In this document: in pieces, positions 10,817 through 34,568 of the stretch
Layout: every line of letters starts with the position of its first letter
Numbering within the stretch: position 1 is the stretch's first letter
Assembly (NCBI GenBank): GCA_902586695.1
Contig: CACIIL010000003.1
Location: 1,639 to 65,638 of the forward strand
Length of the DNA: 64,000 bases
Source: an uncultured Alphaproteobacteria bacterium
GTDB taxonomy: Bacteria; Pseudomonadota; Alphaproteobacteria; HIMB59; GCA-002718135
Direction: 5' to 3'
Position numbers and translations under genes: made by a program
The notes under the pieces: model-generated
The model's input: only the letters and a program-made list of their open reading frames with translations
What the model was told of the DNA's origin: nothing
Database searches by the model: none

Positions 10817-10817
10817 A

Positions 10818-12430: not shown

Positions 12431-12439
12431 TACGTAAAT

Positions 12440-13816: not shown

Positions 13817-13836
13817 GATTTAACTGTATCATTCAC

Positions 13837-13850
13837 TGAATGAGCATTCA
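13837..13850. promoter_or_regulatory. Palindromic operator candidate TGAATGAGCATTCA (site 1)
   Basis: Perfect 14-bp palindrome, flanked by further ATTCA/TGAAT half-sites (attcacTGAATgagcATTCAatgaaa). It lies exactly 20 nt upstream of the aminotransferase ATG at 13816. Confidence 0.6.
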
Positions 13851-13869
13851 ATGAAATAATTTTTATATT

Positions 13870-14646
13870 CTATTTATCTTTCCAATTCGGATCTGTTTTT
13901 TTAACAAAAGAAGAAGCTCCTTCTTTTAGATCTTCACTTCCATAAACTTTTTTTACCGATTCTAATGATCGCAAAATTTTAAATGATGGTATTTCCTTTT
14001 CGTTTTCTGTTTCTCTTAAAACTTCTTTAATTGAAGAATAAATTAAATTAGGTCCTTTTGAAATTTTATCAGCTATTTCCCAGGCTCTTTTTAATAAATC
14101 ATTTGTTTTAACAATTTCATTTACTAAACCCCAGTGTTTTGCTTCTTTGACATCCATCCATCTTCCAGTCATTAAAAACTCAACAGCTATGTGATAGGGT
14201 ATGCGTCTTCTTAATTTTATTGTAGCTGCGTCAGCTACAACTCCTACATTGATTTCAGGTAACGCAAATGTTGCGTGTTCTGCTGCAATTATAATATCTG
14301 CTGAAATCATAATTTCAAAACCACCACCGCACGCAATACCATTAACAGCTGCTATAATAGGTTTGTTCATATTAGGTAACTCTTGCAGTCCTCCAAATCC
14401 ACCAACACCATAATCTGCATCAGCAGCTTCTCCTTCATTAACAGCCTTTAGATCCCATCCGGCAGAAAAAAATTTTTCTCCGCCACCTGTAACGATAGCT
14501 ACTTTAAGTTTTGGATTATCTCTAAAGTCAGCAAATATGTCTCCCAACATTATACTTGTCTTAGCATCTATCGCATTAGCTTTTGGTCGATCGATAGTTA
14601 TCTCTAATATTGATCCTTCAATTCTTGTTTTAACTGGTTTGTCCAT
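13870..14646 (-). CDS. caiD: Crotonobetainyl/carnitinyl-CoA hydratase-like enoyl-CoA hydratase
   Basis: Near-colinear with E. coli CaiD as I recall it: GSILEITIDRPKANAIDAKTS, GEKFFSAGWDLKA, IAAVNGIACGGGFE, DPNWKDK C-terminus. Confidence 0.75.
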   Translation of the reverse strand: MDKPVKTRIEGSILEITIDRPKANAIDAKTSIMLGDIFADFRDNPKLKVAIVTGGGEKFFSAGWDLKAVNEGEAADADYGVGGFGGLQELPNMNKPIIAAVNGIACGGGFEIMISADIIIAAEHATFALPEINVGVVADAATIKLRRRIPYHIAVEFLMTGRWMDVKEAKHWGLVNEIVKTNDLLKRAWEIADKISKGPNLIYSSIKEVLRETENEKEIPSFKILRSLESVKKVYGSEDLKEGASSFVKKTDPNWKDK

Positions 14647-14654
14647 AAATTAAA

Positions 14655-16691
14655 CTATATTAAATAATGTATTAAAGCATCTACAGCAAATACACCTTTA
14701 CCTTTTTTACAAACTATTAGTGGATTTATATCAACTTCTGAAATTTTATCTGAATTTTTTTCAGCAAAAACAGCTACTTTTAATATTGTATTTATTAATG
14801 CATCAATATCAGCACTATCACTTCCTCTAAAACCAAATAATATTTTGCTAAATTTAAGTTTTTTTATTTCATCCAAAATTATTTTTTTATTTAAAGGTAA
14901 AAGTAGGGTAGTCGTATCTTTAAATAATTCGGTATAAATACCACCAGCACCTAATATTATTGTAGGTCCAAATTGGTTATCATTTTTTATGCCTATTATC
15001 ATTTCAAAAATCGAATTTGATATCATTTTTTCAATTAAAATATTACCTCTAAATTTATTTGTCTTTTGCTTTAATTCTTTTTCATTATTAATGTTAGTAA
15101 TAACACCTCCAATTTCAGTTTTATGAAAAACTGTAGTTGAATGTATTTTTGCAACTAAAGGAAATCCTATTTTTTTACAATCTCGCAAAATATTTTTTTT
15201 ATTTGTAATTAAAGATTTTGGTGTAGATATTTTAAATTTTTTTAGGATTAATTTTGATTCATATTCTGTATATGTTTTAATTTTATTTTTATAATTTTGT
15301 AAATTTTTTGAAATTTTAATTTCACTAAAATTACTCCAAGCTTTTGAAATTTTTATTGAATTACTTATGGCTAGTAAACTCTCTGACATACCCTGAAGTG
15401 GGACAACTCCTGACCTGAGACATTTTTCTCTTAGATGTTTAGGAAGGGTATCTGAAAGTGAAGAAATAATCGCTCCATTTTTTTTTATTTTTGATGATTT
15501 TATAAATTGATCTACTATAGCATCCCATTCTGCAGTGTCACAATCTTCTATATTTGGAAAATCTAACATCAGTGCATTTAAACCAAAATTAGTTTTAAAT
15601 ATTAATTTAAATGTTTTTGCTAATTGCTTAGGGTCATTCCAGTTGTATGTTTGTAGATCAAATGGATTTGAAATTATAACACTTGGGTGATTAACTTTTT
15701 TTAATTCATTTTTTATTTTTGTAGGTATTTTACCAAAATTTAACGACAAATTTTCTGCTACGTCTCCTATCATAGCCATATCACCACCTGATGGGCCCAT
15801 AATTGAAATTTTATCGTTATTTAAAACACCATGAGTGTGAAATAATTTTAAAATTTCACATAATTCTCCTAATGTATTACATCTAGCTACACCCATTCTT
15901 TGAAATAAAGAATCATATATATCTTCTTTCCCACTTAATGATCCAGTATGTGTTAATATTGTTTGAGACGCAGTTTTAGATCTGCCTACTTTAACTAATG
16001 CTATAGGAATTTTTTTTAATCTGGATTTTTTAAATACTTTTATTAACTTTTCTGTATTGGTAAAACTTTCAGCATAAATTCCAATAGCAGTAACTCTCTT
16101 ATCATCTAAAGCAAAATTAATGGCATCTTCTATAGTTATTTGTGATTGATTGCCGAGAGAAATTATATACCCAATTGGTAAAGATCTATTATTAAAACTA
16201 ATCGTATTACCAATAGTTCCGCTTTGACATATAATAGCAACACCTTTTTTAGTGGGTTTGCCTGCTACTTGATCAGACCATACTGAAATTCTATCCAAGT
16301 AATTTATAAATCCATAACAGTTTGGTCCAAGGAATGGCATTTCGCCAGCATTCCTAATTAGCTCATTAGTTTTATTAGTACCTTCTTTAGAATTAAGTTC
16401 AGAAAATCTCGAAGCTAAACAAACAGTTCCTCCAACACCTATGTCAGCAATATCTTTTATTAATTTTACTGTTTGATCTCTTGAGACAGCTAGATAAACG
16501 CAATCAGGTACTTCTGGAAGATCTTTAATATTTTTATAATATTTTTTTGCTTTGGAACTTTTACGTGAAGGATTAATATGCCAAACTTTACCTTGATAGC
16601 CAATAGTTTTATTGCCATCATAAACAAAGTCTGCCCAATACCCTCCAACTAAAGCAAGGCTTTTTGGTCTAAAAAGTTTTTTTAAATTCAA
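14655..16691 (-). CDS. ADP-forming (NDP-forming) acyl-CoA synthetase, fused CoA-binding/ligase and ATP-grasp domains
   Basis: 678 aa. The N-terminal CoA-binding fold (FRPKSLALVGG) and succinyl-CoA-synthetase-like flavodoxin domains are followed by a C-terminal ATP-grasp (FPLVAKIHSTTVFHKTEIGGV). Confidence 0.75.
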   Translation of the reverse strand: MNLKKLFRPKSLALVGGYWADFVYDGNKTIGYQGKVWHINPSRKSSKAKKYYKNIKDLPEVPDCVYLAVSRDQTVKLIKDIADIGVGGTVCLASRFSELNSKEGTNKTNELIRNAGEMPFLGPNCYGFINYLDRISVWSDQVAGKPTKKGVAIICQSGTIGNTISFNNRSLPIGYIISLGNQSQITIEDAINFALDDKRVTAIGIYAESFTNTEKLIKVFKKSRLKKIPIALVKVGRSKTASQTILTHTGSLSGKEDIYDSLFQRMGVARCNTLGELCEILKLFHTHGVLNNDKISIMGPSGGDMAMIGDVAENLSLNFGKIPTKIKNELKKVNHPSVIISNPFDLQTYNWNDPKQLAKTFKLIFKTNFGLNALMLDFPNIEDCDTAEWDAIVDQFIKSSKIKKNGAIISSLSDTLPKHLREKCLRSGVVPLQGMSESLLAISNSIKISKAWSNFSEIKISKNLQNYKNKIKTYTEYESKLILKKFKISTPKSLITNKKNILRDCKKIGFPLVAKIHSTTVFHKTEIGGVITNINNEKELKQKTNKFRGNILIEKMISNSIFEMIIGIKNDNQFGPTIILGAGGIYTELFKDTTTLLLPLNKKIILDEIKKLKFSKILFGFRGSDSADIDALINTILKVAVFAEKNSDKISEVDINPLIVCKKGKGVFAVDALIHYLI

Positions 16692-16694
16692 AGA

Positions 16695-17846
16695 TTATGC
16701 TCCAAGGGGTCTTAGAAGTGAACGTGAAATAATATGACGTTGAATTTCACTGGTTCCTTCCCAAATTCTTTCTATTCTTGCATCTCGCCATATTCTTTCA
16801 AGTGGAATATCTGACATCAATCCCATTCCACCAAGGATTTGAATAGCTTCATCTGAGATTCTGCTTAACATTTCAGTACAAAATAATTTTGTCATAGCCG
16901 CATCTTGAGATGTTAATGTTTTTTGATCAATTTTCCAAGCAGACTCCATTAATATCAAGTTTGCTAGTTTAATTTCTGTAGCCATATCAGCTAATTTAAA
17001 TGAAACACCCTGAAATTTTCCAATTACTTTTCCAAATTGTTTTCTATTTGCAGACCAATCCAAGGCTATATCAAAAGCTCTTTCGGCTCTAGATACAGAA
17101 GTTGCCGCAACAGTTAAACGAGTTGCTTCTAACCAAACATTCATTAGCTCAAAGCCTTTATCTTTTTCACCAAGAATATTTCTTGCAGGAATTCTGCAAT
17201 CATTAAAGTTTAAAATATTATTAACGTATCCTCTGTGAGAAACACAGTCATAACCTTTTGCAACCTCAACTCCTTTTTGTTTTAAATCAACTAAGAAACA
17301 CGAAAGTAAATTTCTACCTTTTTCATCTTCACCTGTTGAGGCAAAAAGTACTACAAAGTCAGATATGTGTGCATTAGATATAAAATGTTTTGTTCCATTA
17401 ATCACCCAATCATTACCATCCTTAACTGCTTTTGTTTTCATCCCCCGTAAATCTGAACCAGCTCCTGGTTCTGTCATTGCTATGCAATCTTTTCTCTCAC
17501 CTGTGATAGCTGGTTTTAAGTATTCATCGATTAATTCACCTTCACAGGCCATTAAGATATTTTGTGGTCGCCAAGCAACTTCCGCTAAAGCAAGTGATGC
17601 AAAACCGAGATGTTTTTCAACTAAAGTTAAATCAAAAGCATTTAAACCACCACCACCATGTTCAGTGGGCATATTGCAAGCATACAAACCTGCTTTAATA
17701 CTTTTTTGCTTAATTTCATCATACAATTCTTTTGGTAAATTATTTGTTTTTTCTAATAATTCTTCGTGTTGAAGCAATTCTGCTTTTACAAATGACTTAG
17801 TAGTATCAATTAAAAGATTCTGTTCTTCTGAAAGATTAAATTCCAT
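16695..17846 (-). CDS. Acyl-CoA dehydrogenase
   Basis: 383 aa with TEPGAGSD, QFGK.IG.FQ and the C-terminal IWEGTSEIQRHIISR. Confidence 0.85.
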   Translation of the reverse strand: MEFNLSEEQNLLIDTTKSFVKAELLQHEELLEKTNNLPKELYDEIKQKSIKAGLYACNMPTEHGGGGLNAFDLTLVEKHLGFASLALAEVAWRPQNILMACEGELIDEYLKPAITGERKDCIAMTEPGAGSDLRGMKTKAVKDGNDWVINGTKHFISNAHISDFVVLFASTGEDEKGRNLLSCFLVDLKQKGVEVAKGYDCVSHRGYVNNILNFNDCRIPARNILGEKDKGFELMNVWLEATRLTVAATSVSRAERAFDIALDWSANRKQFGKVIGKFQGVSFKLADMATEIKLANLILMESAWKIDQKTLTSQDAAMTKLFCTEMLSRISDEAIQILGGMGLMSDIPLERIWRDARIERIWEGTSEIQRHIISRSLLRPLGA

Positions 17847-17852
17847 TATTCT

Positions 17853-19055
17853 TTATGTAAACGCAGGTGTTTCATTTCTTCTTGGATTGTTAAAAAATTG
17901 CTTTTTAACCACTTTACATTCAGCCCAAATTTTTCTGTAATCCAGCTCTTCTGGATGATAAATTTCAGCATAAACATTTGATCCTAATTTATAATGTTCT
18001 TTGCTAACAAATCCAATCGCAATATTAGATTTTAGGACAGGGGACCACATTGCAGCTGTCACTATACCAATTTCTTTGGCTTGATTTTTTTTACTATTAT
18101 CGTAGAGTACAGAACCAACGGCAGGTTTATCTCCTTCAATATCTAATCCCACGAGTTTTTTTTCAGGACCTTTTTCTTTGTGTCTAATTAATGCCTGTTT
18201 TCCAGTAAAATACTCTTTATTTAGATTTACTAACCAGCCCAAACCTAATTCATAGGGGTTTCTCATTCTATTGGGTCTTAAAGCTTGTTCCGCAGACATA
18301 AAATCTACATTAGGTTGGATAAAACCAGCTTCAATTCTCACCATCTCAAGTGCATTCATTCCAGCTGCTAGTACTTTATAGTCTCTATTAAATTTAAATA
18401 AACTATCCCATACACCAATGGCTTGAGAAGGGTCACACCATATTTCATAACCTAAGTCTCCAGAAAAACCTGTTCTGGAAATTGTAACATTATGATTTTC
18501 AATATTATAATTATTAAAATGAAATGGTTTTAGGTTTTCTATATTTTCTACTTTTAATAAATTTAATATCTTACAAGATAATGGCCCTTGAAAAGCTAAA
18601 GCTGCAATTGATGGACTTATATCCTCAACACTTGCTTTAAATCCCGTAGCTGTGTCAGAAAACCAATTTAGATTTCGTTCTGCACAAAAAATTCTAAAAT
18701 GATTTTCATTAAAGCAAAATATTGTTCCATCATCAATTACCATTCCATCTTCATTGCACCATATGCCATAGACAACTTGGTTTGATTGAATATTAGTAAT
18801 ATCTTTTGTGATTAATTTATTAATAAACTTTTTAGCATCCTCACCTTTGATATCATATTTATGCATAGGAGTAATATCAATTACCCCAGCTGTATTTCTC
18901 ATTGAAGTATATTCAAGTTCTGTTGATGAGTACTCTTTAGCAACTTTATAACCAGCCCATCTATACCAATCATTTGCATAACAATGCTCAGATGTTCTTT
19001 CGTGAAAAGGTGTCTCTAAGAGAGGTTTTTTGTATGATATTTTTGATGTATTCAT
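17853..19055 (-). CDS. Aminomethyltransferase-family (GcvT/DmdA-like) folate-binding protein, stand-alone
   Basis: 400 aa with TPFHERT, EYTSMRNTAGVIDITP, SRTGFSGDLGYEIW and VRIEAGF, all typical of the GcvT fold. Its start overlaps the upstream flavoprotein's stop by 1 nt (TAATG). Confidence 0.75.
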   Translation of the reverse strand: MNTSKISYKKPLLETPFHERTSEHCYANDWYRWAGYKVAKEYSSTELEYTSMRNTAGVIDITPMHKYDIKGEDAKKFINKLITKDITNIQSNQVVYGIWCNEDGMVIDDGTIFCFNENHFRIFCAERNLNWFSDTATGFKASVEDISPSIAALAFQGPLSCKILNLLKVENIENLKPFHFNNYNIENHNVTISRTGFSGDLGYEIWCDPSQAIGVWDSLFKFNRDYKVLAAGMNALEMVRIEAGFIQPNVDFMSAEQALRPNRMRNPYELGLGWLVNLNKEYFTGKQALIRHKEKGPEKKLVGLDIEGDKPAVGSVLYDNSKKNQAKEIGIVTAAMWSPVLKSNIAIGFVSKEHYKLGSNVYAEIYHPEELDYRKIWAECKVVKKQFFNNPRRNETPAFT

Positions 19056-20521
19056 TATTTTAAATCCTCTATTACTTTTTTTGCAGCATTAAGACCGTTG
19101 ATACCTGTTAATCCTCCTCCAGGATGGGTTCCTGCACCACATAAATATAAACCATTTATAGGTGTAGAATATTGAGCTGATCCATAAAAAGGTCTCATCA
19201 TTAATAATTGATCTATTTCTAAATCACCGTGATGCCAATGCCCTCCTGCTATATTAAACTTTTCTTCCATTTTATTGGGAGTGATGAGTTTTTGTTTTAC
19301 TATTTTCATATCTGGAATAAATTTACTTAAAACTGAAACACATCTTTCAATTATTTCATTTTCTTGATGATTAGTATTAATTAAATACGGAACATAATAA
19401 ACATTAGCTGATAAGGTTTTTTGATTAACGTAAAACTCAAGGCATGGATTTTCAGAATATTTGTTATATTTATTAGCATTAAATGCATGTTCTATGTACT
19501 TAATACCAGGAGCATAAATAAACTTTCCGTTCATTTTTTTATCAATATTATTAATGTTAATTTCATTTTCTAACTCTAATTCAAGCTTAGCAACATTTCC
19601 TTTATTTCTAAAATTTTTAGTTCTTCTAATAAAATCAGTATCTAGGATTTCTGCACCTAATAAATTTAAATAAGTTGTTTTAGGGTCAGCATTAGACATT
19701 ACATATTTTGATTCAAAAACCTCACCATTTGTTAATTGAACGCCAGTGACAGAGTTATTTTGAGTTAATATTTTTTTAACTTCAGAGGATTTAATGATTT
19801 CAACAGTATTTTTATTACAGCAATCTTCTAACTGATTAATATATTCTGCAACTTCTATTTTGTTTAAATTAAAAATATTGTCATTGATAGCTTGTTTATA
19901 AAGTAAAGTTAATATTGAGCCTGGAGATCTTGGACCTAGGTTTGTTCCTAAAACAGCTTCATGGGATAATAGACCCATTAGATTATTGCTATTTAAATTA
20001 TCTTCTAAGTCATCTGCGATATTTAAACCAATTACTCTTAATAGTTCACGCATATTTTTTTTACCTAATTTTCTAATTTTCCATCCCATAGAAATTAATT
20101 GAAATAAGTCAGCTCTTTTACCTGATTTAACTCTTGGTGGTTTTTGAAACATAAATGCACCAAGAGTTTTTGAAAAGAATTTGTAGTTATTGATAATTGA
20201 CAAGAATTTCTTTTGATCATTTTCATCAGCATTTGTTTGAACAAAAGATAATTTGCCATTTTTATCTGACAAAATTGTATGATTTTGATTATCCTCTAGT
20301 GATATAATATTATTTGAATGATTAATATTATTAACATTAATCCCTAATTCTTTTTTAATGATTGGTGAGATACAGTTTATTGATTCTGCATATTCCGCTA
20401 ATCCTCCAACGTTTTCGTTTTTTTCAATTACCAAAACTTTTTTTCCTTTTTTTGATAAGTATGAAGATGCAACTAATCCATTGTGACCTCCACCAATTAT
20501 TATGACATCAAATTTTTTCAT
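19055..20521 (-). CDS. FAD/NAD(P)-dependent oxidoreductase, CrtI/PYROXD2-like (divergent paralogue)
   Basis: 488 aa with DVIIIGGGHNGLVASSYL and the C-terminal GLYLCGAGTHPGGGLTGINGLNAAK. It overlaps the upstream paralogue by 4 nt (ATGA). Confidence 0.75.
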   Translation of the reverse strand: MKKFDVIIIGGGHNGLVASSYLSKKGKKVLVIEKNENVGGLAEYAESINCISPIIKKELGINVNNINHSNNIISLEDNQNHTILSDKNGKLSFVQTNADENDQKKFLSIINNYKFFSKTLGAFMFQKPPRVKSGKRADLFQLISMGWKIRKLGKKNMRELLRVIGLNIADDLEDNLNSNNLMGLLSHEAVLGTNLGPRSPGSILTLLYKQAINDNIFNLNKIEVAEYINQLEDCCNKNTVEIIKSSEVKKILTQNNSVTGVQLTNGEVFESKYVMSNADPKTTYLNLLGAEILDTDFIRRTKNFRNKGNVAKLELELENEININNIDKKMNGKFIYAPGIKYIEHAFNANKYNKYSENPCLEFYVNQKTLSANVYYVPYLINTNHQENEIIERCVSVLSKFIPDMKIVKQKLITPNKMEEKFNIAGGHWHHGDLEIDQLLMMRPFYGSAQYSTPINGLYLCGAGTHPGGGLTGINGLNAAKKVIEDLK

Positions 20522-22146
20522 ATGTAATGTGTTGATATTTTCATCTTTAAATCTTTTAATATTTCTCTTGCTGCATTAGCTCCAGGTGCACCCATAACAC
20601 CTCCGCCAGGATGTGTGCTTGATCCGCACATATATAGATTTTTGATCGGTGTCTTATATTGAGCATAACCAGGTACTGGACGATTAAACATTAATTGGTC
20701 CATGGTTAGTTCACCTTGGAATATATTGCCTTCAGTTAAACCAACCTCAGCTTCTATTTCTTTAGGAGTTCTAATTTCTGCATGATTGATAATATCATTA
20801 AAGTTTGTGGAGTAATTGCCAATTCTATTCATTACATGTTTACCAAATTCAAGACGTTTCTCCTCAGTCCAACCTCCATTAGCTAAATTGTAGGGTACAT
20901 ATTGAATAAATACAGACATATAATGTTTTCCTTGTGGTGCCATAGTTGGATCATTGATGCTTGGAATGCACATATCAACATAAGGAAATTGTGACCACTT
21001 ACCATCCTTCCAATCATCGTAAGCTCCTTCCATCTCTTCTATGTTTTGCGTTATATGCAGATCACCAGTGCCAGCAGGATCACCAACTGGAATACTCTTC
21101 CAAATAGGAAGATCATCAAGAGCAATATTTAATTTTCCTGATGAGCCTCTAATTTTAAAATTTTTAACAGCTTTATAAAAATCACTAGGTAATTCTTTTT
21201 CTTCTACAACTTTTAAAAAAGTTCTTTTTACATCAAGGTTAGAAACTATTTTATCTGCATAAATTTCATCACCATTCTCAAGAACAAGTCCGTAACTTTT
21301 GTTATTTTTGATAAGAATCTGACTTACTGGTGAACCAGCTTTTATTTCACCATTGTTTGATTTTAAAGATGACGCCATAGCTTTTGTAATCGAGCCCATT
21401 CCTCCTCTGGAATAACCCCAAGCTCCAACAGTCCCATCTACTTCTCCCATGTAATGATGTAATAATACATAAGCTGATCCAGGGGAATAAGGCCCAAGCG
21501 CTGTACCTATTATTGCAGATCCTGCTAAATGTACTTTTACTATATCTGATTCAAAATATTCTTCTAAATAATCTCTTACGCTCATTGTCCAAAATCTTAT
21601 GGTGTCGTAAATTTCTTTTTCACCCAAACCACCAAGCTCATCTTTAGCTGCAAAGTATTTTGCAAATTCAAAAAGACCCATAATATCTTTTGGTTTAAAA
21701 GAAGTAGGGTCAGGAGGAGTCATTTTTAAAAGAGGTTTGATAATTTTGCACTGCCTCATTACATCTTTGCCAAACCTATCATAAGCTTCAGCATCTTTTT
21801 TTGAAAATTGAGCGATAGATCTGTAAGTTAAATCATGATCTTGATAATGTGCATAAAATCTACCATCATTAAGCATACTCGCACTACCTTCATAAGGTAT
21901 AATTTGAAGCCCATGATTTGATAATTCTAAATCTCTAAATATCTCAGGTCTTAATAAGCTGCAAACATATGAGCAATTAGAATAAGTCCAACCTGGATGC
22001 AATTCTCTGCTAACAGCTGCGCCTCCAACATATTCATGTCGTTCCACAACAATGACTTTGAGACCCGCCTTAGCCAAATAACAAGCTGTGGTTAATCCAT
22101 TATGACCACCACCAATTATAGCAACATCATATTTAGTTTTGTTCAT
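20518..22146 (-). CDS. FAD/NAD(P)-dependent oxidoreductase, PYROXD2-like (phytoene-desaturase superfamily)
   Basis: 542 aa, colinear with human PYROXD2 as I recall it: YDVAIIGGGHNGL, SYVCSLLRPEIFRDLEL, IAQFSKKDAEAY, GSAYVLLHHYMG, GAWGYSRGGMG, NIFQGELTMDQLMFNRPVPG, LYMCGSSTHPGGGVMGAPG. Confidence 0.75.
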   Translation of the reverse strand: MNKTKYDVAIIGGGHNGLTTACYLAKAGLKVIVVERHEYVGGAAVSRELHPGWTYSNCSYVCSLLRPEIFRDLELSNHGLQIIPYEGSASMLNDGRFYAHYQDHDLTYRSIAQFSKKDAEAYDRFGKDVMRQCKIIKPLLKMTPPDPTSFKPKDIMGLFEFAKYFAAKDELGGLGEKEIYDTIRFWTMSVRDYLEEYFESDIVKVHLAGSAIIGTALGPYSPGSAYVLLHHYMGEVDGTVGAWGYSRGGMGSITKAMASSLKSNNGEIKAGSPVSQILIKNNKSYGLVLENGDEIYADKIVSNLDVKRTFLKVVEEKELPSDFYKAVKNFKIRGSSGKLNIALDDLPIWKSIPVGDPAGTGDLHITQNIEEMEGAYDDWKDGKWSQFPYVDMCIPSINDPTMAPQGKHYMSVFIQYVPYNLANGGWTEEKRLEFGKHVMNRIGNYSTNFNDIINHAEIRTPKEIEAEVGLTEGNIFQGELTMDQLMFNRPVPGYAQYKTPIKNLYMCGSSTHPGGGVMGAPGANAAREILKDLKMKISTHYI

Positions 22147-22166
22147 TGTATTTTCTTATATTTCTT

Positions 22167-22180
22167 TGAATGAGCATTCA
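22167..22180. promoter_or_regulatory. Palindromic operator candidate TGAATGAGCATTCA (site 2) in the divergent tetR / flavoprotein-operon spacer
   Basis: The 14-mer is identical to site 1. It lies exactly 20 nt upstream of the minus-strand ATG at 22146 and 42 nt upstream of the TetR ATG. Confidence 0.65.
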
Positions 22181-22222
22181 ACCAAATTTCTTGTAAAATC
22201 AAGCTTTTTATGAAAAACTGTA

Positions 22223-22861
22223 ATGAATTTATTAAATATGAAACAAAGAAATCTTAGATCAGAAAATAAGAAAAATAGTAATTTAAAATTAATTTCTTCA
22301 ACAATTAAAAATTTATCAAAAAAAGGAATAAATGAATTAACTATGCATGATGTTTCGCAGGGAGCAGGCCTTTCCCAAGGTATAGTAAATTTTCATTTTA
22401 AAAGTAAGGAACTTTTATTAATAGAAACATTAAAGTATATTTCTAACGAGTATCTAGATTCATTTCAAAGAAGTATCGCAAAAAAAGGTAATGATCCAAG
22501 AAAAAAAATCATTGGAATTGTAGAAAATGATTTTAGTAAAAAAATTTGCACTAGAGAAAAAATTGCAGTGTGGTTTACTTTTTTTAGTGAAATTAAATAT
22601 AAACCCGCTTATCATCAAATTTGTAAAGAACGAGATATGTATTACCAATCTTTAACTGAAAATATATTTGATGAACTTATAAAAAAAGAAAAAGTGAAAT
22701 TATCTAAAAAAAATATTTCTAGAGGATTTCAAGCTTTGATTATGGGATTATGGTTGGATCAACTTGAAGATCCTGATACTTTTAACAGGATACAAGCAAA
22801 GAAAATATGTTTTGAGTTTATTAAATCTAATTTCCCCAAACAATTTAAGGGAATGTTTTAA
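22223..22861 (+). CDS. TetR-family transcriptional repressor, BetI-like
   Basis: HTH (LTMHDVSQGAGLSQGIVNFHFKSK). The effector-domain segments AVWFTFFSEIKYKPAY and ALIMGLWLD parallel E. coli BetI (KAWLAFWASSMHQP, ALIDGLWLR) as I recall it. Confidence 0.75.
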   Translation: MNLLNMKQRNLRSENKKNSNLKLISSTIKNLSKKGINELTMHDVSQGAGLSQGIVNFHFKSKELLLIETLKYISNEYLDSFQRSIAKKGNDPRKKIIGIVENDFSKKICTREKIAVWFTFFSEIKYKPAYHQICKERDMYYQSLTENIFDELIKKEKVKLSKKNISRGFQALIMGLWLDQLEDPDTFNRIQAKKICFEFIKSNFPKQFKGMF

Positions 22862-22863
22862 CA

Positions 22864-24042
22864 ATGTATAGCGGCATGACACCAAAAGCTTTGGAATGGC
22901 AATTAAAGATAAAAAAATTTGTTAATGATGAATTAATTCCTTGGGAGGTGCATGCAGAAAAAAATGAAGGTGAGTTACCCAAGGAAATTGAAAAAAAACA
23001 TCGGGAGATTGCTATTTCACTAGGTTTGCCGGGTATGGGTATTTCAAAAGAAAGCGGAGGCTTAGGATTAAATATGTTTGAACAGATGATAGTTTGGGAA
23101 CAATTAGGCCGAGTTACAAATGCATTATGCTGGTGTTTTTCAGAAGCTCAAGATTGGATGGAAAATAATTTTACTGATTATCAAAAAGAAAATTATTTTA
23201 GACCACTTTTAAACGGTACTAAAAAAGAATGTTATGCGATTACAGAAAAAGGCGCAGGTTCAGATGTGGAAGGCTCAATTGAAACAACAGCAGAAAAAAA
23301 GGGAGATCAATATATTATTAATGGCGAAAAATGGTATGTTACAAGTGCAAATCTAGCTGATTTTTTCTTTTTACAGGCAAAAATTAAATCTGGTTCAAAT
23401 GAGGGCAAGCATTCACTATTTATAATTGATAAGGATGAGAAAGGTATTGAGTTAATAGATAGCCCTAAGTTTAGTCATACATATGCTCATCATCATTCTA
23501 TTTATAGGTTTGATAATGTTTCAATTTCAGAAAAAAACATAATTGGTAATGAAGGTATTGGCATGGATTATACGCATTCCTGGTTTAGGCATGAAAGACT
23601 AGGTATAGCTGCAAGATGCTGTGGGGCTGCTCAAAGATTAATTGATGAAGCAACAATTTTTGCAAAAGAAAGAGAATCTTTTGGTGATAAAATTTCAAAC
23701 TATCAAGCTATACAATTCATGTTAGCAGATAGTGTAAATGAATTAGCTTCAACTAGATTGATGCTTTATGAGGTTTGTAAAGCTCATGATGCAAAACAAG
23801 ATGTAAAAATTTTACATGGAAAATGTTCTATGATTAAATTACTTGCATCTGAAATGGCTAATAGAATTGCTGATCGTGCAGTGCAGATTTTTGGTGGAAG
23901 AGGATATATGAGAGAAAATGTTGCAGAGCGTTATTATAGAGAATTAAGAGTGGACCGTATTTGGGAAGGAACAAGTGAAATTCATAGAATTATTATTGCA
24001 AATTCTCTTTATAAAAGAGGTTTGAAATCTTTAATTGAATAA
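22864..24042 (+). CDS. Acyl-CoA dehydrogenase (second copy)
   Basis: 392 aa with TEKGAGSD, FGDKISNYQAIQF and the C-terminal IWEGTSEIHRIIIAN. Confidence 0.85.
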   Translation: MYSGMTPKALEWQLKIKKFVNDELIPWEVHAEKNEGELPKEIEKKHREIAISLGLPGMGISKESGGLGLNMFEQMIVWEQLGRVTNALCWCFSEAQDWMENNFTDYQKENYFRPLLNGTKKECYAITEKGAGSDVEGSIETTAEKKGDQYIINGEKWYVTSANLADFFFLQAKIKSGSNEGKHSLFIIDKDEKGIELIDSPKFSHTYAHHHSIYRFDNVSISEKNIIGNEGIGMDYTHSWFRHERLGIAARCCGAAQRLIDEATIFAKERESFGDKISNYQAIQFMLADSVNELASTRLMLYEVCKAHDAKQDVKILHGKCSMIKLLASEMANRIADRAVQIFGGRGYMRENVAERYYRELRVDRIWEGTSEIHRIIIANSLYKRGLKSLIE

Positions 24043-24063
24043 ATAGGGAGCTGAAAAAAAATT

Positions 24064-24948
24064 ATGATAGGTTATTGGAAAAAAGTTTATGCAAAAAATG
24101 ATAATGTTAAAGCCTATACTTTATTATCACCCGCTCTAATTTTAATTATTTTGGCTATGGTTGTGCCAATGGCACTAATGTTGAGCTTTAGTATGTTTAC
24201 TCAAGTTAACATGATGGAGATAGATTATACTTTTACATTTCAAAGATATATTGATTTCTTTCAAAAAAATTTGCTGGTCACACTTCTCATAAAGTCTATC
24301 AAAATATCATTTTTAGTAACTTTAATTACACTGATCACAGCATACCCAGTTTGTTATTACATCGCTTTTTATGTCAAAAAAAACAAAATGTTGTGGCTTG
24401 TTTTACTCACTTTGCCTTTTTGGACATCTTATTTACTAAGAGTATTCTCTTGGAAGATTATTCTTGGAACAAAAGGAGTTATAAACTCTTCATTGATCAA
24501 CGCTGGAATTCTCAGCGAACCTCTTACATTTCTTATGTATTCAGAAACCGCGGTAGTTATTACGCTTACTCACGCATGGGCAGCATTTGCATTACTACCT
24601 TTATATGTTTCGTTAGAAAAAATTGACTTTTCGTTTATTGAAGCAGGAAGAGATCTTGGACTCTCTCGATTTGAAGTTTTTTGGAAAATTACATTTCCAT
24701 TATCTTTACCTGGTGTAATAGGAGCGATATTAATCATATTCATTCCTACAGTAGGTGATTATGTCACTCCAGCCTTACTTGGAGGAACTGATGGTCGTAT
24801 GCTTTCGAATATGATCCAGGCTTACTTTGGAAAAATAAATAATATTCCTCTTGGCGCAGCTTCAGCTACAATTATGTTAACAACTGTTATACTCATAACA
24901 ATAATTGTGTCGAATGTAACAAAAAGACTTACACAAAGGTTAACTTAA
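24064..24948 (+). CDS. ABC transporter permease, PotB-like
   Basis: 294 aa, 6 TM segments, EAA loop IEAGRDLGLSRFEVFWKITFPLSLPG. Confidence 0.8.
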   Translation: MIGYWKKVYAKNDNVKAYTLLSPALILIILAMVVPMALMLSFSMFTQVNMMEIDYTFTFQRYIDFFQKNLLVTLLIKSIKISFLVTLITLITAYPVCYYIAFYVKKNKMLWLVLLTLPFWTSYLLRVFSWKIILGTKGVINSSLINAGILSEPLTFLMYSETAVVITLTHAWAAFALLPLYVSLEKIDFSFIEAGRDLGLSRFEVFWKITFPLSLPGVIGAILIIFIPTVGDYVTPALLGGTDGRMLSNMIQAYFGKINNIPLGAASATIMLTTVILITIIVSNVTKRLTQRLT

Positions 24949-24950
24949 AA

Positions 24951-25760
24951 ATGAACGAAAAAAATAATACATTACTGATTTATACCCTTCTTTATTTTGT
25001 ATTTCTTTATGTGCCAGTTTTATTCTTACCTATATTTAGTTTTAACGATGCAAATTATATGTCATTCCCTCTCGCTGGATTTACAACGGAGCACTATGAA
25101 GAGATGTGGTCAAAAAGAAATCTACATAAGGCTCTATGGGCAAGTATAAAAGTAGGAGTTGTTGCGAGTGTCATTAGTACAACAATTGCACTATTTGCAG
25201 CAAAGGCATTTGCTCGATATAAATTTAGAGGGGAAAAGATTTCTTATGGAGGTATTATGATGCCATTTTTGATACCTGAAATTATCTTGGCTGTAGCTAT
25301 ACTGATAATTTGGATCAATCTTGGATTTAAATTAGGGCTAGTCCCAGTAACAATTGGCCATACTTTATTTTGTACACCTTTTGCAATGTTAATACTTATA
25401 GCCCGTATTGAAGGTTTTGATTTTTCACTTGAAGAGGCCTCTAGGGATTTAGGAGAGAATGCTTGGGGAACATTTTTTAGAGTTTCTTTTCCATTGTATT
25501 TACCTGGAATAGTTGCAGCTCTTCTTCTTAGTTTCATAATTTCTTTTGATGAATTTATTCTTGCATTTTTTTTAACTGGAAGTGACGCAACGTTACCTAT
25601 GTATATGTGGGGTCAAATGAGATTTGTTCAGAAGTTACCTCATGTACTGGCTTTAGGAGCAGTAATTATTGTTTTTACTACGTTTATTGTTTTGTTAGCA
25701 TTCTGGTTAAGAAATGTTGGACAAGGTAAAGCAAAGAAAGATATAGCTTTAAAATTATAA
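24951..25760 (+). CDS. ABC transporter permease, PotC-like
   Basis: 269 aa, EAA loop EEASRDLGENAWGTFFRVSFPLYLPG. Confidence 0.8.
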   Translation: MNEKNNTLLIYTLLYFVFLYVPVLFLPIFSFNDANYMSFPLAGFTTEHYEEMWSKRNLHKALWASIKVGVVASVISTTIALFAAKAFARYKFRGEKISYGGIMMPFLIPEIILAVAILIIWINLGFKLGLVPVTIGHTLFCTPFAMLILIARIEGFDFSLEEASRDLGENAWGTFFRVSFPLYLPGIVAALLLSFIISFDEFILAFFLTGSDATLPMYMWGQMRFVQKLPHVLALGAVIIVFTTFIVLLAFWLRNVGQGKAKKDIALKL

Positions 25761-25766
25761 AAAATT

Positions 25767-26849
25767 ATGAGCAATTCATTTATACAAATCAATAATATTT
25801 CAAAACATTTTAAAGATGTAAAGGCAGTTGATGATGTTTCATTTGAGATTAAAGAAGGTGAATTTTTTTCACTTTTAGGACCTTCTGGATGTGGAAAAAC
25901 AACATTGTTGAGGTTATTGGCAGGATTTGAATATCCAACTTCTGGAAATCTATTAATTGATGGGATAGATATTACTGCATTACCTCCAGACAAAAGACCT
26001 ACAAATATGGTTTTTCAAAACTATGCAATTTTTCCTCATCTTAATGTTGAAAAAAATATTAAATTTGGACTAAGAAAACTTGGCTTAAGTCATGATGAGA
26101 TAGGTAATAGAGTTAAAGATGTTCTTAAATTAGTAAAGCTTGAGGGCTATGAAGAAAGGTTTAGCAATCAACTATCTGGTGGTCAAAGACAGCGTGTTGC
26201 TCTTGCTAGAGCTTTAGTAAGGCAACCAAAAGTTCTATTATTAGATGAACCTCTAGGTGCTTTAGATAAAAAACTAAGAGATGAAATGCAATTAGAATTA
26301 AGAACTCTTCAAAAAAATATTGGAATTACTTTTGTATTTGTCACTCATGATCAACAAGAAGCCATAAGTATGTCAGACAGAGTTGCAGTTATGAATGATG
26401 GAAAAATTCAACAATTATCAGCACCCAACGAACTTTATAAGAATCCAAAAAATATATTTGTAAGTGATTTTATAGGTGAAACAAATTTTCTTAAAGCTGA
26501 GACTAAATCAAGTGATGGAGGATTCATCAATGTTTCAATCGAAGAATTGGGAGAATTTAAAATTAAAAATAATTTAAATATCGCAGCAAATTCTTCTGAT
26601 GTTGTTTGTAGTGTTCGCCCAGAATCTATGATGATTTCAAACGTGAAATCCGATTGGGATATTTGTCTTGATGCTAAGATTAGACAGACTTCATATTTAG
26701 GAGAAATGACTAGATTTTACGTTGAAGTTAAAGGAATAGATAAGACTATCACTGTTTCTTCACAACATTTTGACAACCAATCTTTTGAAAATAACGAGTG
26801 TTTTATAAGTATTAGTTTAGAAGATATTTCTTTATTGAATAAAAAATAG
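25767..26849 (+). CDS. ABC transporter ATP-binding protein, PotA-like
   Basis: Walker A GPSGCGKTT, signature LSGGQRQRVALARAL, Walker B LLLDEPLGALD and a C-terminal TOBE-like domain. Confidence 0.85.
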   Translation: MSNSFIQINNISKHFKDVKAVDDVSFEIKEGEFFSLLGPSGCGKTTLLRLLAGFEYPTSGNLLIDGIDITALPPDKRPTNMVFQNYAIFPHLNVEKNIKFGLRKLGLSHDEIGNRVKDVLKLVKLEGYEERFSNQLSGGQRQRVALARALVRQPKVLLLDEPLGALDKKLRDEMQLELRTLQKNIGITFVFVTHDQQEAISMSDRVAVMNDGKIQQLSAPNELYKNPKNIFVSDFIGETNFLKAETKSSDGGFINVSIEELGEFKIKNNLNIAANSSDVVCSVRPESMMISNVKSDWDICLDAKIRQTSYLGEMTRFYVEVKGIDKTITVSSQHFDNQSFENNECFISISLEDISLLNKK

Positions 26850-26874
26850 CCAGTCCTCAAAAAGAGAACAGGCT
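26848..26874 (-). terminator. Imperfect hairpin plus T-run; terminator of the binding-protein gene, overlapping the potA-like stop codon
   Basis: AGCCAGTCCTC-aaaaa-GAGAACAGGCT pairs at 9 of 11 positions. On the minus strand it is followed by TTTTTT. Confidence 0.5.
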
Positions 26875-26899
26875 ATTTAGATATTGAACTAAACTTTGA

Positions 26900-27988: not shown

Positions 27989-28003
27989 TTTACCCCCAAT
28001 AAA

Positions 28004-28023
28004 AATTAATTAATTAATTAATT
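28004..28023. repeat. (AATT)5 self-complementary tetranucleotide repeat in the binding-protein gene leader/promoter
   Basis: Read directly: aatt aatt aatt aatt aatt, ending 16 nt upstream of the ATG at 27988. Confidence 0.9.
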
Positions 28024-28071
28024 GCTACATGAACAATAATTTGAGAAAATTTCAATAAAAAATAGCAATTT

Positions 28072-29547
28072 TTATAAATTAGGTTTTAATTTATTATTTT
28101 GAAACCATGGTTCTATCTGCTCTAATTGATAGCCTGCTTGGAAAACGGGTATATCATCATAAGGCTTTCCAACTATTTGTACCCCAGTAGGCACGCCATT
28201 ACTAGCTATTCCTGAAGGGATTGATAATACTGGTAATCGACAGAGTATATTAAAAGGATAACACAAAGTCCATCCAAGATCGGGTGAATTTATTTCTTTT
28301 CCATTAATTACTATTTTATCTTTAAACAGATTAATATCTGCCCTAACGGCAGGTATTGATAATGTAGGACAAATAAATGCATCGTATTTGTGTATTATAG
28401 GTCCAAATTCTTCATACATTTTACCAGCTATTTTATTGCATTCATATAATGTCATGCCTAAATCAACACCCATACTAGGATGATTAATTTTTTTTCTTTC
28501 AACTAATGCTTTGTTAATAATTCTAGCAGTCAAGCCAACATCTCTTGCATAATCTGTCAGCTCCTCTTCATGCTCAGGTATTAATTCTGCAATAAAATTA
28601 GCAAAAAGATGGGCATAATAATTATAACAAGTATCCTCAAGTTCTTTTTTGTTCCAGTTTATTTTAACTTCTTCAACTTTTGCACCTAATTCTTTTAATT
28701 TATTAATTATATCGAGTGTATTTTTTTCTACCTCTTTATCAATTTCAAAAAAACCAAGATTCATTGAATAAGCTATTTTCCAATTTTTAATATTATCAAA
28801 TTTATTAGGGATATTTAATTTGGGTTTTAAACTAGTAATATCTTTAGGATGTGGTCCTGACATTACATTTTGCATTAGAGCACAATCTTTTACTGTTCTT
28901 GCCATTGGACCAACTACACAATATTGATCATGATTAAAAGGAGCTGCCTGAGGATTTCGACCATGAGGAGGTTTAAATCCAACTAGACCACAGGCAGAAG
29001 CAGGTATTCTTATTGAACCTCCAATATCAGAACCAGTTGCGAGAGTTGAACATCCAGCAGCTAGAGATGCACCTGAACCTCCTGATGAACCTCCAGGTGT
29101 ATATTCCAAATTCCATGGATTTCTTGTAACGCCCCACAATTTCGAATGAGTGAATGAGGTAGTGGAAAATTCAGGCGTAGTTGTTCTGCAATGAATAACT
29201 GCTCCAGAATTAATAATTCTTTCAACATCAACCATAGTTTTTTTTGCTATGCGATCTTTTAATATCAAAGAACCATTAGTATTTGGCTGACCTTCGATAT
29301 CCTCTTCATCTTTGATAGCAACAGGTATACCTTCTAGAGGGAGTGTTTTGGAGTTTGTAAAATATTTTTGTTCTGATTTTTTTGCATATTCAATCGCTTT
29401 TTCATAAAAAGTAAAGTTATGAGCATTTATTTTAGGATTAATCTTTTGCGATCTTTCAATTACAGAATTTACTAGTTCTACAGGAGATAATGACTTATTT
29501 TTAAATTTTTTAATTGCTTCAACAGCTGATATATAATGTAGATCCAT
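28072..29547 (-). CDS. Amidase-signature (AS) family amidase
   Basis: 491 aa with the GGSSGGSGASLAAG signature, GSDIGGSIRIPA and a conserved K in AIKDE. Confidence 0.85.
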   Translation of the reverse strand: MDLHYISAVEAIKKFKNKSLSPVELVNSVIERSQKINPKINAHNFTFYEKAIEYAKKSEQKYFTNSKTLPLEGIPVAIKDEEDIEGQPNTNGSLILKDRIAKKTMVDVERIINSGAVIHCRTTTPEFSTTSFTHSKLWGVTRNPWNLEYTPGGSSGGSGASLAAGCSTLATGSDIGGSIRIPASACGLVGFKPPHGRNPQAAPFNHDQYCVVGPMARTVKDCALMQNVMSGPHPKDITSLKPKLNIPNKFDNIKNWKIAYSMNLGFFEIDKEVEKNTLDIINKLKELGAKVEEVKINWNKKELEDTCYNYYAHLFANFIAELIPEHEEELTDYARDVGLTARIINKALVERKKINHPSMGVDLGMTLYECNKIAGKMYEEFGPIIHKYDAFICPTLSIPAVRADINLFKDKIVINGKEINSPDLGWTLCYPFNILCRLPVLSIPSGIASNGVPTGVQIVGKPYDDIPVFQAGYQLEQIEPWFQNNKLKPNL

Positions 29548-29567
29548 AGATATTGCTTTAATTTAAT

Positions 29568-29581
29568 TAAATAGACATTCA
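29568..29581. promoter_or_regulatory. Degenerate operator candidate TAAATAGACATTCA (site 4)
   Basis: 9 of 10 half-site positions match TGAAT-N4-ATTCA. It lies 20 nt upstream of the amidase ATG at 29547, in the divergent amidase/GS-like spacer. Confidence 0.4.
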
Positions 29582-29605
29582 ATTATTTTTTTCATATAAA
29601 TTTAT

Positions 29606-31850: not shown

Positions 31851-32064
31851 TTTTTAATCTCTTTTTTTCTTCTAAATAGTTATTTAAACTTATAATTTTT
31901 TTACTTGCATTTGTTTGAAAAAATGCTGGTATTAGAGAGTGAATAAAAGCCATTATTGAAGCTTTTAATAAATCAAATGATATTTTTTGAGCTACATACA
32001 TATGTTGTAAATATGTTTCGTTTGCATCTGTACAGTGTTTCTTTGATTTTTTAAACAAATTCAT
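31840..32064 (-). CDS. Small conserved hypothetical protein (DUF6356-like), between aguA and aguB
   Basis: The listed ORF runs 31840..32100. I place the start at the internal Met (MNLFKKSKKH...), 2 nt after the aguA stop, which avoids a 34-nt overlap. The ETYLQHM...IHSLIPAFFQT pattern matches my recollection of DUF6356 proteins. Confidence 0.5.
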   Translation of the reverse strand: MNLFKKSKKHCTDANETYLQHMYVAQKISFDLLKASIMAFIHSLIPAFFQTNASKKIISLNNYLEEKKRLKNED

Positions 32065-32066
32065 TT

Positions 32067-33110: not shown

Positions 33111-33185
33111 TCAATAAGTTACGTTACAGTTTTTAGATTTTGTAAATGAGTAATCATCTTTGTACCTTTTTTATTTGGTAAAACA

Positions 33186-34524
33186 TTAATTTTTATCCAT
33201 ATATTTATAATAAGCTAAGACTAATTTTAAGTAAAATAATCTTAGTTTTGGAAAAGGGAATTTGCTTGGTAAACCTTTGTAAAGTTTTGATATATTCAAA
33301 TTCTTACTGTTCGATACTATTAATTTTGCAAGTTCATTACCTGACCAAGGAGCTGTGTTCACTCCGTTTGCTTGATAGCCAAAACTATAATATATTTCAT
33401 CATCTTCGATTTTACCTATTGAGGGTGAAAATTTAGTTGTTATTGCAATAAGACCTCTCCAATGAAAATCAATATTAACATTATTCCAGTTAGGGAAAAC
33501 CTTTTTCATTTGAAGTTCCATATTTTTAGATTTTTCTAATGAAGATTTTTCACTACCAACCAAATCACCTCTTGCTCCAAATAGAAATCTATTATCTTTT
33601 AATAACCTATAATAAAAAAGAAGATTTCTTATGTTTAAAACTGGATTATTTGTAATAAAATTATGAGATTTAATTTCTTCAGTAGTAAGCGGTCTTGTAA
33701 TAATAATATTTGATATTACTGGCAAAATCATATTATTAAGTTTTGGAAAGATATCATCTTTATAGAAACCATTAGTTGCCATAACAACTTTATTTGCTTT
33801 TATAATACTACCATTTGAAATTATTATAAATTTACCTTTAGATTTTTCAATTTTTATAACTTTACTTTTTTGAAAAATTTTAACTCCAGCATTCTTAGCT
33901 GCATTTGCAATACCTAATAAAAATTTTAATGGGTTAATTGCAAAACCAGGTTTATATGACATTGCTCCATACTGCTCAATACCTCCGTGACCTACTTCAT
34001 TAAATTCTTCTTTCGAAAAAAACTTTTGTTTCAATTCCAAATTCTTTTTTATATGTTTCAGCTGCTTTTTTTATCTCATCAAAATAATTTGGATGTGGAG
34101 CTACTTCATAGTTACTATCACCTGTTAAATCACAATCTATATTATATTCCTTAATTGTATTTTTTGTAAATTTTGAACCTTCAATAGTATTTTGAAAAAA
34201 CTTTTTCGTTTCATCTTTTCCATATTTGTTAAACATTTTTTTAACAGACATTTTTGCTGGTGGGATACAGCAGAATCCAGCATTTCTTCCTGAAGAACCC
34301 CAACCAATATGACCTGCTTCAAGTAATATTACATCCTCATTATATTTCTTCGCTAATGATAATGCACATGACAATCCAGTATAACCACCACCTATTACAA
34401 CCACATTTGCATTCATATCTTGATCTAGTGTTTTATATTTATTTTTTGTATCAATTGTGGATTCCCAATAACTATTTACTGGTTTTTCAAAATTATAAAT
34501 ATCATTGTGATATAAGTTAGACAT
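33186..34524 (-). pseudogene. FAD-dependent oxidoreductase (DAO family, PuuB-like), interrupted by a frameshift in an A7/T7 run
   Basis: The N-terminal fragment is 34000..34524 (VVVIGGGYTGLSCAL FAD fold). The C-terminal fragment is 33186..34040 and starts only at a TTG. The frames join inside the A7 run 34016..34022. Removing one base gives ...GIETKVFSKEEFNEVGHGG..., which is colinear with the intact paralogue at 37238..38554. Confidence 0.75.
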
Positions 34525-34543
34525 AAGTTAGTATAAATTTCAT

Positions 34544-34557
34544 TGAATGCTTATTCA
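34544..34557. promoter_or_regulatory. Palindromic operator candidate TGAATGCTTATTCA (site 3)
   Basis: TGAAT-gctt-ATTCA has perfect 5-bp arms. It lies 19 nt upstream of the minus-strand ATG at 34524 and 11 nt upstream of the Rieske ORF, centred in a 44-bp divergent spacer. Confidence 0.55.
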
Positions 34558-34568
34558 ATCAATATTAT

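Follow-up and report, generated by a model that had tools for sequence, protein, structure and literature searches.

The question raised by this locus is what reads a palindrome that recurs, at an almost constant distance from start codons, in the spacers of an amine-catabolism gene island. The locus lies in a 64,000-nucleotide stretch (64 kb; hereafter, the window) of contig CACIIL010000003.1 from an uncultured alphaproteobacterium. A preliminary description, made from the sequence alone, had noted the motif TGAAT-N4-ATTCA in front of four minus-strand genes and had proposed that one BetI-like repressor of the TetR family controls them together. The comparative evidence collected here makes it quite probable that the 16-mers starting at 13836, 22166, and 34543 are operators of a TetR-family, BetI-paralogous repressor (22223..22861) and act on the promoters of amine-catabolism operons; a fourth, weak operator may lie at 29567.

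The palindrome is concentrated in spacers

The four sequences were found at the positions described before, and the gaps between the box and the ATG of the minus-strand gene are indeed 20, 20, 19, and 20 nucleotides (nt) for the sites that we designate O1, O2, O3, and O4. The exact motif TGAAT-N4-ATTCA occurs three times in the window (at 13837, 22167, and 34544). This count alone is marginal, because 5 of 100 dinucleotide shuffles reach at least three copies (mean, 0.52). It is the location that makes the 14-mer significant: all three copies are intergenic, intergenic DNA amounts to 2399 nt or 3.8% of the window, and only ~0.015 exact copies are expected there (arithmetic from an intergenic GC content of 0.215). 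The flanks of the copies extend the motif to the 16-mer TTGAATG-N2-CATTCAA, the full element, which was scored by the number of matches to its 14 defined positions (strong, at least 12/14) in the window and in 594 kb of related loci. In the window, 4 strong matches are found in 2581 intergenic positions versus 1 in 61404 coding positions, an enrichment in spacers that agrees with the earlier proposal. No further intergenic match of at least 12/14 was found in the 594 kb of related loci.

O2 (22166..22181; TTGAATGAGCATTCAA, 14/14) is a perfect 16-bp palindrome in the 76-nt spacer between a flavoprotein operon on the minus strand and the TetR operon on the plus strand. O1 (13836..13851; minus strand TTGAATGCTCATTCAG, 13/14) lies between the stop codon of an enoyl-CoA hydratase gene and the start of an aminotransferase gene. 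O3 (34543..34558; TTGAATGCTTATTCAA, 13/14) is centred between the divergent genes for a DAO-type oxidase and a Rieske oxygenase, and its box is also 19/20 nt from the conserved start at 34578 of the plus-strand Rieske gene. O4 (29567..29582; minus strand TTGAATGTCTATTTAA, 12/14), between the amidase gene and a glutamine-synthetase-like gene, is a weak and doubtful site. If one mismatch is allowed in the 14-mer, 10 matches are found in the window versus 12.5 expected; since such sequences occur at chance frequency, O4 (14-mer at 29568) is not significant by sequence alone. It is set apart only by its 16-mer score of 12/14 in a spacer and by its identical register to the ATG.

Other matches were rejected. 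A 13/14 match (TTGAGTGATCATTCAA) is present at 3441-3456, in the 3' end of a short-chain dehydrogenase/reductase (SDR) gene and 55 nt before a gene for a GMC (choline-dehydrogenase-family) oxidoreductase that starts at 3512. The match encodes the conserved SDR motif LSDHSR and was treated as probable chance; an internal operator is less likely. The 12/14 matches that recur within the genes for the Rieske protein, the acyl-CoA synthetase, and AguA in relatives are orthologous coding positions and were not counted as sites. The degenerate copy at 33143, which had been mentioned upstream of aguA, has to be given up: it scores 9/14, a score shared by 309 other positions, and falls within the remnant of a small open reading frame (ORF), and is thus attributed to chance. 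This small ORF of ~43 amino acids (aa) is conserved between the oxidase gene and aguA in relatives (comparison loci L012, ~19350-19486; L016, ~19351-19511; L019; and L023), has a signal peptide and a lipobox-like ...GC motif, and ends in KKGKKGDFSFRKCTNCNVTD; at 33111-33185 of the window, only its C-terminal remnant is left, with the 33143 "box" inside.

O1, O2, and O3 are conserved in place

Synteny extends over the whole region in 23 genome loci, and the 14/14 palindrome of O2 is present in 22 of these 23 loci of the HIMB59 lineage, with a 12/14 variant in the remaining one (L020). O1 is kept in 17 of 17 loci that retain the hydratase-aminotransferase junction, and, within the HIMB59 lineage, both sites have kept their places in genomes whose TetR identity is as low as 65-70%. 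O1 is missing from L011 alone, in which the aminotransferase gene is fused into the O2 operon. Kordiimonadaceae locus L029 keeps the core of the O2-type gene cluster; its aminotransferase gene has no box of its own and lies inside the operon with the TetR-proximal box. The aminotransferase would thus stay box controlled either way, because in both loci it is part of an operon that starts at the TetR-proximal box. O3 was followed in 30 metagenome loci with Rieske orthologues; the block TATAAATTTCA-TTGAATGCTTATTCAA-TCAATATTATA is nearly invariant in 26 of the 30, down to 71% protein identity, and stands between variable flanks. Its inner positions 7 and 10 do vary, and they do so without compensation. 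Conservation upstream of orthologues, which the preliminary description had anticipated for a true regulatory site, is therefore found for O1 to O3.

O4 behaves differently. Its coordinates and its 20-nt gap hold, and it is kept in close relatives, but conservation is confined to its left half. The right half is eroded further in L006 and L010, and roughly half of the lineage (L011-L019 and L020) lacks the site. The amidase gene itself (28072-29547) is variably present. In L002, L005, and L021 it is deleted, and its first codons and an O4-like sequence remain as a relic beside the glutamine-synthetase-like gene. We regard O4 as a decayed copy of doubtful function.

Next to O1, a third half-site, TGAATGA, is conserved at 13829-13835 (minus strand), directly after the palindrome (TTGAATG-CT-CATTCAG-TGAATGA). 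It creates a second, oppositely oriented inverted repeat, CATTCA-G-TGAATG, which might provide another register for binding or belong to the promoter spacer.

The adjacent regulator is a paralogue of BetI

The gene next to O2 (22223..22861, plus strand) encodes the TetR-family regulator of 212 aa that we propose as the repressor. It consists of a TetR_N domain (PF00440, residues 24-68, E = 5.5e-8) with the recognition helix GLSQGIVNFHF and a BetI-type C-terminal ligand domain (PF13977, TetR_C_6, E = 2.9e-12); its relatives in the PDB are all members of the TetR family. The BetI models are its best NCBIfam matches, but the scores stay below the respective cut-offs (TIGR03384, 105.7 versus 201.3 bits; NF001978, 101.4 versus 118 bits). 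Furthermore, linkage to betA, betB, betT, or betC was not found, the neighbours being flavoprotein, GcvT-like, acyl-CoA dehydrogenase, and ABC transporter genes; the only GMC oxidoreductase gene (3512-5140) is 17 kb away and has no intergenic box. The low scores, the different geometry of the box (see below), and targets other than bet genes make the regulator a BetI paralogue and not BetI sensu stricto. The gene is, as described before, the only TetR gene in the window; a second DNA-binding regulator, of the ScfR type, is encoded at 5459-6898, and DksA is encoded as well.

The protein is 100% identical to one in the single-amplified genome (SAG) AG-457-I08, and its relatives are found in HIMB59-type SAGs and metagenome-assembled genomes (MAGs). 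The window belongs to the lineage HIMB59/AEGEAN-169/'MarineAlpha5', formerly SAR11 subclade V, and not to SAR11 proper, whose genomes had been named as related.

A strictly conserved TTTTATGAAAAA is located 29 nt after O2 (window 22210-22212; aligned in L004, L007, L011, L012, L016, and L020). Its ATG is in frame with tetR in some lineages, where it would give proteins of 217-219 aa, and out of frame in the window and several others, where it opens upstream ORFs of 4-26 codons. The element may act on TetR translation, as a 5'-terminal start codon or an upstream ORF, or it may be part of a promoter.

The box follows the TetR gene and changes with its recognition helix

To what extent the palindrome belongs to this regulator can be judged from 22 distant TetR homologues with 29-38% identity. 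The box TTGAATG-N2-CATTCAA is present at 12-14/14 in the loci of seven of them (31-38% identity), which belong to alphaproteobacteria with genomes of 48-68% GC, and in each of these loci (up to ~20 kb) it is the only match of at least 12/14. In genomes of such composition, a chance occurrence of the box is very improbable. Five of the seven loci have the box 51-126 nt ahead of the TetR gene; in four of them, the TetR gene is divergent from a dimethylglycine-dehydrogenase-like gene with the domains DAO-FAO_M-GCV_T, and the fifth is L029 with the cluster known from the window. In the other two, the box is 4.3 kb upstream, at the start of an operon that encodes, in this order, a substrate-binding protein, two permeases, an ATPase, the TetR protein, and an Old Yellow Enzyme (OYE)-like flavoprotein.

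The recognition helix carries the signature LSxG, and position x is occupied by Gln, Leu, Ile, Thr, or Val in the HIMB59 proteins and in all seven distant proteins with the box. Twelve homologues have LSHG and lack the TTGAATG box; about nine of the twelve have the variant TTGACTG-N2-CAGTCA(G/A) at equivalent places, either where PotD-like ABC operons begin or immediately upstream of the TetR gene (L024-L027, L030-L033, and L039). The variant has C instead of A at position 5 of the half-site. That the helix and half-site position 5 covary is the best evidence that this subfamily of TetR proteins reads these palindromes, and it suggests a specificity switch of one residue and one base (His for Gln, C for A).

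It is conceivable that the palindrome is the operator of another factor, namely, the ScfR-type regulator (5459-6898) or a regulator encoded outside the window, and that the TetR protein has a different site. Indeed, a second helix-turn-helix regulator is present in the window, and the genes concerned deal with nitrogen-rich substrates, which makes them accessible to global regulators. However, the box tracks the TetR gene or the start of its operon in seven distant genomes whose neighbourhoods otherwise differ, and its sequence switches together with the recognition-helix residue of the TetR protein. In addition, a 7-2-7 palindrome has the size of an operator for a TetR dimer. Another factor is therefore unlikely, and the assignment of the box to the adjacent TetR-family repressor is supported by the enrichment in spacers, the conservation in place, the distant TetR promoters, and the helix covariation.

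The box appears to overlap compact promoters

How, then, could a repressor act from these positions? The sequence TTGAAT begins 35 nt ahead of each of the ATGs, at the place of a -35 hexamer. At O3, candidate promoters are found on both strands. On the minus strand, the -10-like sequence TATACT (34530..34535) is 17 nt from the TTGAAT half (34553-34558) and 5 nt from the ATG of the oxidase gene; the combination TTGAAT-17-TATACT passes a consensus promoter scan, and TATAnn is kept in orthologues. On the plus strand, the -10-like sequence TATATG (34566..34571), which reads TATAAT or TATATA in orthologues, is likewise 17 nt from the other TTGAAT half (34543-34548), and the Rieske ATG at 34578 follows after 6 nt. 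This ATG is most likely the start of the Rieske gene, since the ATG at 34569 would fall inside the -10 element and has no counterpart in most orthologues. In the O3 orthologues, the distance from the box to the -10 element is constant and the distance from the -10 element to the Rieske ATG is 6-20 nt; hence, what appears to be conserved is the unit of promoter and operator and not the distance to the ATG.

At O1, TACAGT (13823..13828, minus strand) is the -10-like sequence, 17 nt from TTGAAT and 6 nt from the aminotransferase ATG; TAnnnT is kept in seven of eight sequence variants, with the ATG 6-9 nt further on. The corresponding sequence at O2 is TATAAG (22155..22160, minus strand), which is 15 nt from TTGAAT and 8 nt from the flavoprotein ATG and is conserved as TATAAG, TATAAA, or TATATG. 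These -10-like elements would fit the earlier suggestion that the box overlaps promoters whose transcription would start beside the ATG.

Promoter-like -10 elements at a distance of no more than ~12 nt from a start codon are numerous in the window (examples are those at rpsD, 47418, and at 56692), and very short leaders may thus be a general trait of this genome.

Given this register, the element might be nothing but a strong -35 hexamer of compact promoters, with a coincidental right half and no dedicated repressor. The exact distance of TTGAAT to each ATG and the -10-like elements ~17 nt downstream would fit such a view, as would O4, where the left half alone is conserved. Against it, the right half is as strictly conserved as the left one at O1, O2, and O3 across many orthologues, and O1 faces no divergent gene that could make use of the right half. 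No other promoter region of the window has TTGAAT in this register. Moreover, a -35 hexamer explains neither why the full palindrome recurs at TetR promoters in GC-rich genomes (48-68% GC) nor why a matching variant accompanies the paralogues with a His helix. We consider a mere -35 element quite unlikely.

A hairpin in the 5' untranslated region, acting on RNA stability, translation, or attenuation, had been named as an alternative in the preliminary description and is very improbable. It is true that the inverted repeat is close to start codons and that the G-to-A change in one half of O3 still permits a G-U pair. However, an Rfam scan of the whole window detected tRNA only, the predicted folding energy is -1.7 kcal/mol (0 for O4), the same element serves both strands at O2 and O3, and the variation at positions 7 and 10 of O3 is uncompensated. 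Furthermore, with the conserved -10-like elements downstream of the palindrome, the palindrome should not be transcribed at all. A dispersed repeat or recombination site (REP-like or a mobile-element end) at the borders of acquired cassettes, for which the identical 14-mer in two copies and the variable presence of the amidase gene beside O4 could be quoted, is excluded for practical purposes because the similarity between the copies ends at ~18 bp, each copy has kept its place over deep divergence, and neither flanking direct repeats nor transposase or integrase genes were found in the annotated region.

A model for the repression of amine catabolism

In our model, a dimer of the TetR-family repressor would bind to the TTGAATG-N2-CATTCAA operators. 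Each operator would overlap the -35 hexamer and the spacer of a sigma-70-type promoter, with the TTGAAT half-site being the -35 element itself, a -10 element of the type TAnnnT or TATAnn 15-17 nt downstream of TTGAAT, and the ATG another 5-9 nt further on. The transcripts would then be leaderless or have leaders of a few nucleotides, and this would account for the distance of 19-20 nt between box and start codon. At O3, and probably at O2, one operator might block two overlapping divergent promoters, at O3 within 53 nt. The bound repressor is predicted to shut off five units: its own operon with an ABC importer, the flavoprotein/GcvT/acyl-CoA operon, the aminotransferase operon, the DAO-type oxidase gene, and the Rieske oxygenase gene. 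The estimate of at least four co-controlled transcription units thus survives, as O1 to O3 alone would cover five. What does not survive is the idea that the box ties the whole island together, since only three or four of its ~8 promoter regions carry it.

Repression would be relieved when an amine effector binds to the BetI-type C-terminal domain and releases the repressor. A methylated amine, a betaine, or a polyamine-derived compound is suggested by the gene neighbourhoods of the box-bearing homologues, which encode GcvT-linked flavoprotein dehydrogenases, OYE-like flavoproteins as in amine dehydrogenases, and PotD-like importers. For the substrate of the pathway in the window, we weighed a gamma-butyrobetaine/carnitine route and a polyamine route; both are candidates, and neither is favoured.

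Several points weigh against this model. The promoter proposed for O2 requires an unusual spacer of 15 nt. On the relevant strands, the consensus promoter scan gave nothing at O1, O2, and O4, and in spacers of 21% GC such a scan works near background and is not discriminating. The absence of Shine-Dalgarno sequences cannot be used in support of leaderless starts, because only 8 of the 59 genes in the window have a Shine-Dalgarno-like sequence (at least 4 nt) in the first place. O4 is not conserved as a palindrome. Finally, all loci in which box and TetR gene co-occur were retrieved via the TetR protein, and the association is therefore partly built in; for the same reason, and because the sequences are phylogenetically related, the counts behind the covariation are not independent. 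The built-in association is mitigated by the position of the box within each locus and by the covariation with the helix.

It is a plausible but tentative extension of the model that there is a BetI-paralogous subfamily across marine Alphaproteobacteria with 7-2-7 operators of the type TTGAxTG-N2-CAxTCAA, in which the helix residue might set the base at position 5 (A with Gln, Leu, Ile, Thr, or Val; C with His), and that in HIMB59 a single repressor of this kind might run the amine/methylamine island via operators whose half-sites are -35 elements of overlapping, divergent, essentially leaderless promoters, with two promoters and one operator accommodated in ~53 nt.

Relation to known repressors

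The dimeric TetR repressor of Tn10 occupies a palindrome of ~15 bp in a short spacer where two divergent promoters overlap, represses both tetR and the structural gene, and leaves the DNA when a small ligand binds. This arrangement would be mirrored here. However, Tn10 has two tandem operators and one target gene, whereas single operators at three or four promoters would form a multi-operon regulon in the window. Unlike in Tn10, the half-sites would coincide with -35 hexamers, and leaders appear to be almost absent. RutR of Escherichia coli, another member of the TetR family, controls a catabolic operon for nitrogen compounds in response to pyrimidines and recognizes the box TTGACCAnnTGGTCAA, which also has a 7-2-7 geometry and an outer TTGA...TCAA. 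Its inner half-site is CCA compared to ATG here, and the C-terminal domain belongs to another family; we take the resemblance as a lead only.

The closest comparison is BetI. The box of BetI1 from Ruegeria pomeroyi DSS-3 is ATTGACG*CGTCAAT, the boxes characterised for BetI1 and BetI2 extend over -35 elements, and in a divergon a single BetI2 box does so at both promoters (PMC12442346). Like BetI, the protein from the window combines TetR_N with a BetI-type C-terminal domain and has BetI models as its best NCBIfam matches. Its putative operator is palindromic, has an outer TTGA...TCAA core, and appears to overlap the -35 element; as proposed for O3 and O2, it would be shared by divergent promoters. 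Autoregulation and control of amine or betaine metabolism would be further common traits. In contrast to BetI, TTGA and TCAA are 8 bp apart (7-2-7) and not 4 bp, the betI box being 4 bp shorter, and the putative targets encode CrtI-like flavoproteins, a GcvT-like protein, acyl-CoA enzymes, an aminotransferase, a DAO-type oxidase, and a Rieske oxygenase but not the products of betA, betB, betT, or betC. BetI itself responds to choline, whereas for the protein described here we can propose an effector class.

The LSHG paralogues (L024-L033 and L039), from Thalassospiraceae, Rhodospirillales, and other alphaproteobacterial MAGs, belong to the same subfamily (29-38% identity). They share the operator geometry and its placement at a PotD-like ABC operon ending in the TetR gene or directly upstream of the TetR gene, and they differ in the box, which is TTGACTG-N2-CAGTCA(G/A), and in the helix, which has His where the window protein has Gln.

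A literature search for the half-site strings returned primer sequences only. In the literature on HIMB59/AEGEAN-169, on TetR and polyamines in SAR11, and on leaderless mRNA in Pelagibacter, we found no account of this regulon and no 5'-end data; we found no mention of it in the AEGEAN-169 genome paper, and a Rhizobiaceae preprint on glycine betaine contained no regulator or motif usable here.

The putative regulon would be of an ordinary, local, and known kind; it is well supported by comparative evidence, is not surprising, and does not overturn current understanding. Its value lies in the organisms. Streamlined oligotrophic bacterioplankton such as SAR11 and HIMB59/AEGEAN-169 have very few transcription factors and almost no defined regulons, and a list of ~20 target genes together with an operator and a candidate repressor offers a testable entry to the control of uptake and oxidation of dissolved organic nitrogen compounds. 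The box may serve as an EMSA probe for effector screening and could reveal the substrate of the CrtI-like/GcvT-like/acyl-CoA pathway. Furthermore, the locus may exemplify a compact promoter-operator economy in a genome of 29% GC, and the apparent His-for-Gln/C-for-A switch is a small, testable addition to the recognition rules of TetR proteins.

Genes under the proposed operators and neighbouring features

The O2 operon (13870..22146, minus strand) encodes two CrtI/amine-oxidase-like flavoproteins, a GcvT-like aminomethyltransferase, an acyl-CoA dehydrogenase, an NDP-forming acyl-CoA synthetase, and an enoyl-CoA hydratase (according to Pfam and NCBIfam). On the plus strand, genes for an acyl-CoA dehydrogenase, two ABC permeases, and a PotA-type ABC ATPase (22864..26849) follow tetR in the same direction and presumably form one operon with it. 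The O1 operon (10247..13816, minus strand) comprises genes for a class-III aminotransferase, an MFS transporter, a GNAT acetyltransferase, and a protein of 189 aa without a Pfam match.

The two genes at O3 code for a DAO-family (PuuB-like) oxidase (33186..34524, minus strand) and a GbcA-like Rieske oxygenase (34578..35810, plus strand) that scores below the NCBIfam cut-off. In the window, the oxidase gene is split into two overlapping ORFs (34000-34524 and 33186-34040) by one extra T near 34027 (T7 versus T6 in orthologues). The orthologues are intact and have 443-445 aa; the split is either an assembly error or a recent frameshift.

Genes for a 3-hydroxyacyl-CoA dehydrogenase, a BKACE beta-keto-acid cleavage enzyme, and a thioesterase are clustered at 7905-10246. 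The 43-nt divergent spacer of this gene set contains no box; the set itself is reminiscent of carnitine dehydrogenase pathways. The ScfR-type regulator is composed of HTH_3, M78 peptidase, and ScfRs domains, and in the 318-nt spacer upstream of its gene (5141-5458), TTGTAAAT occurs three times in the ~50 nt next to the start codon and may be its own operator.

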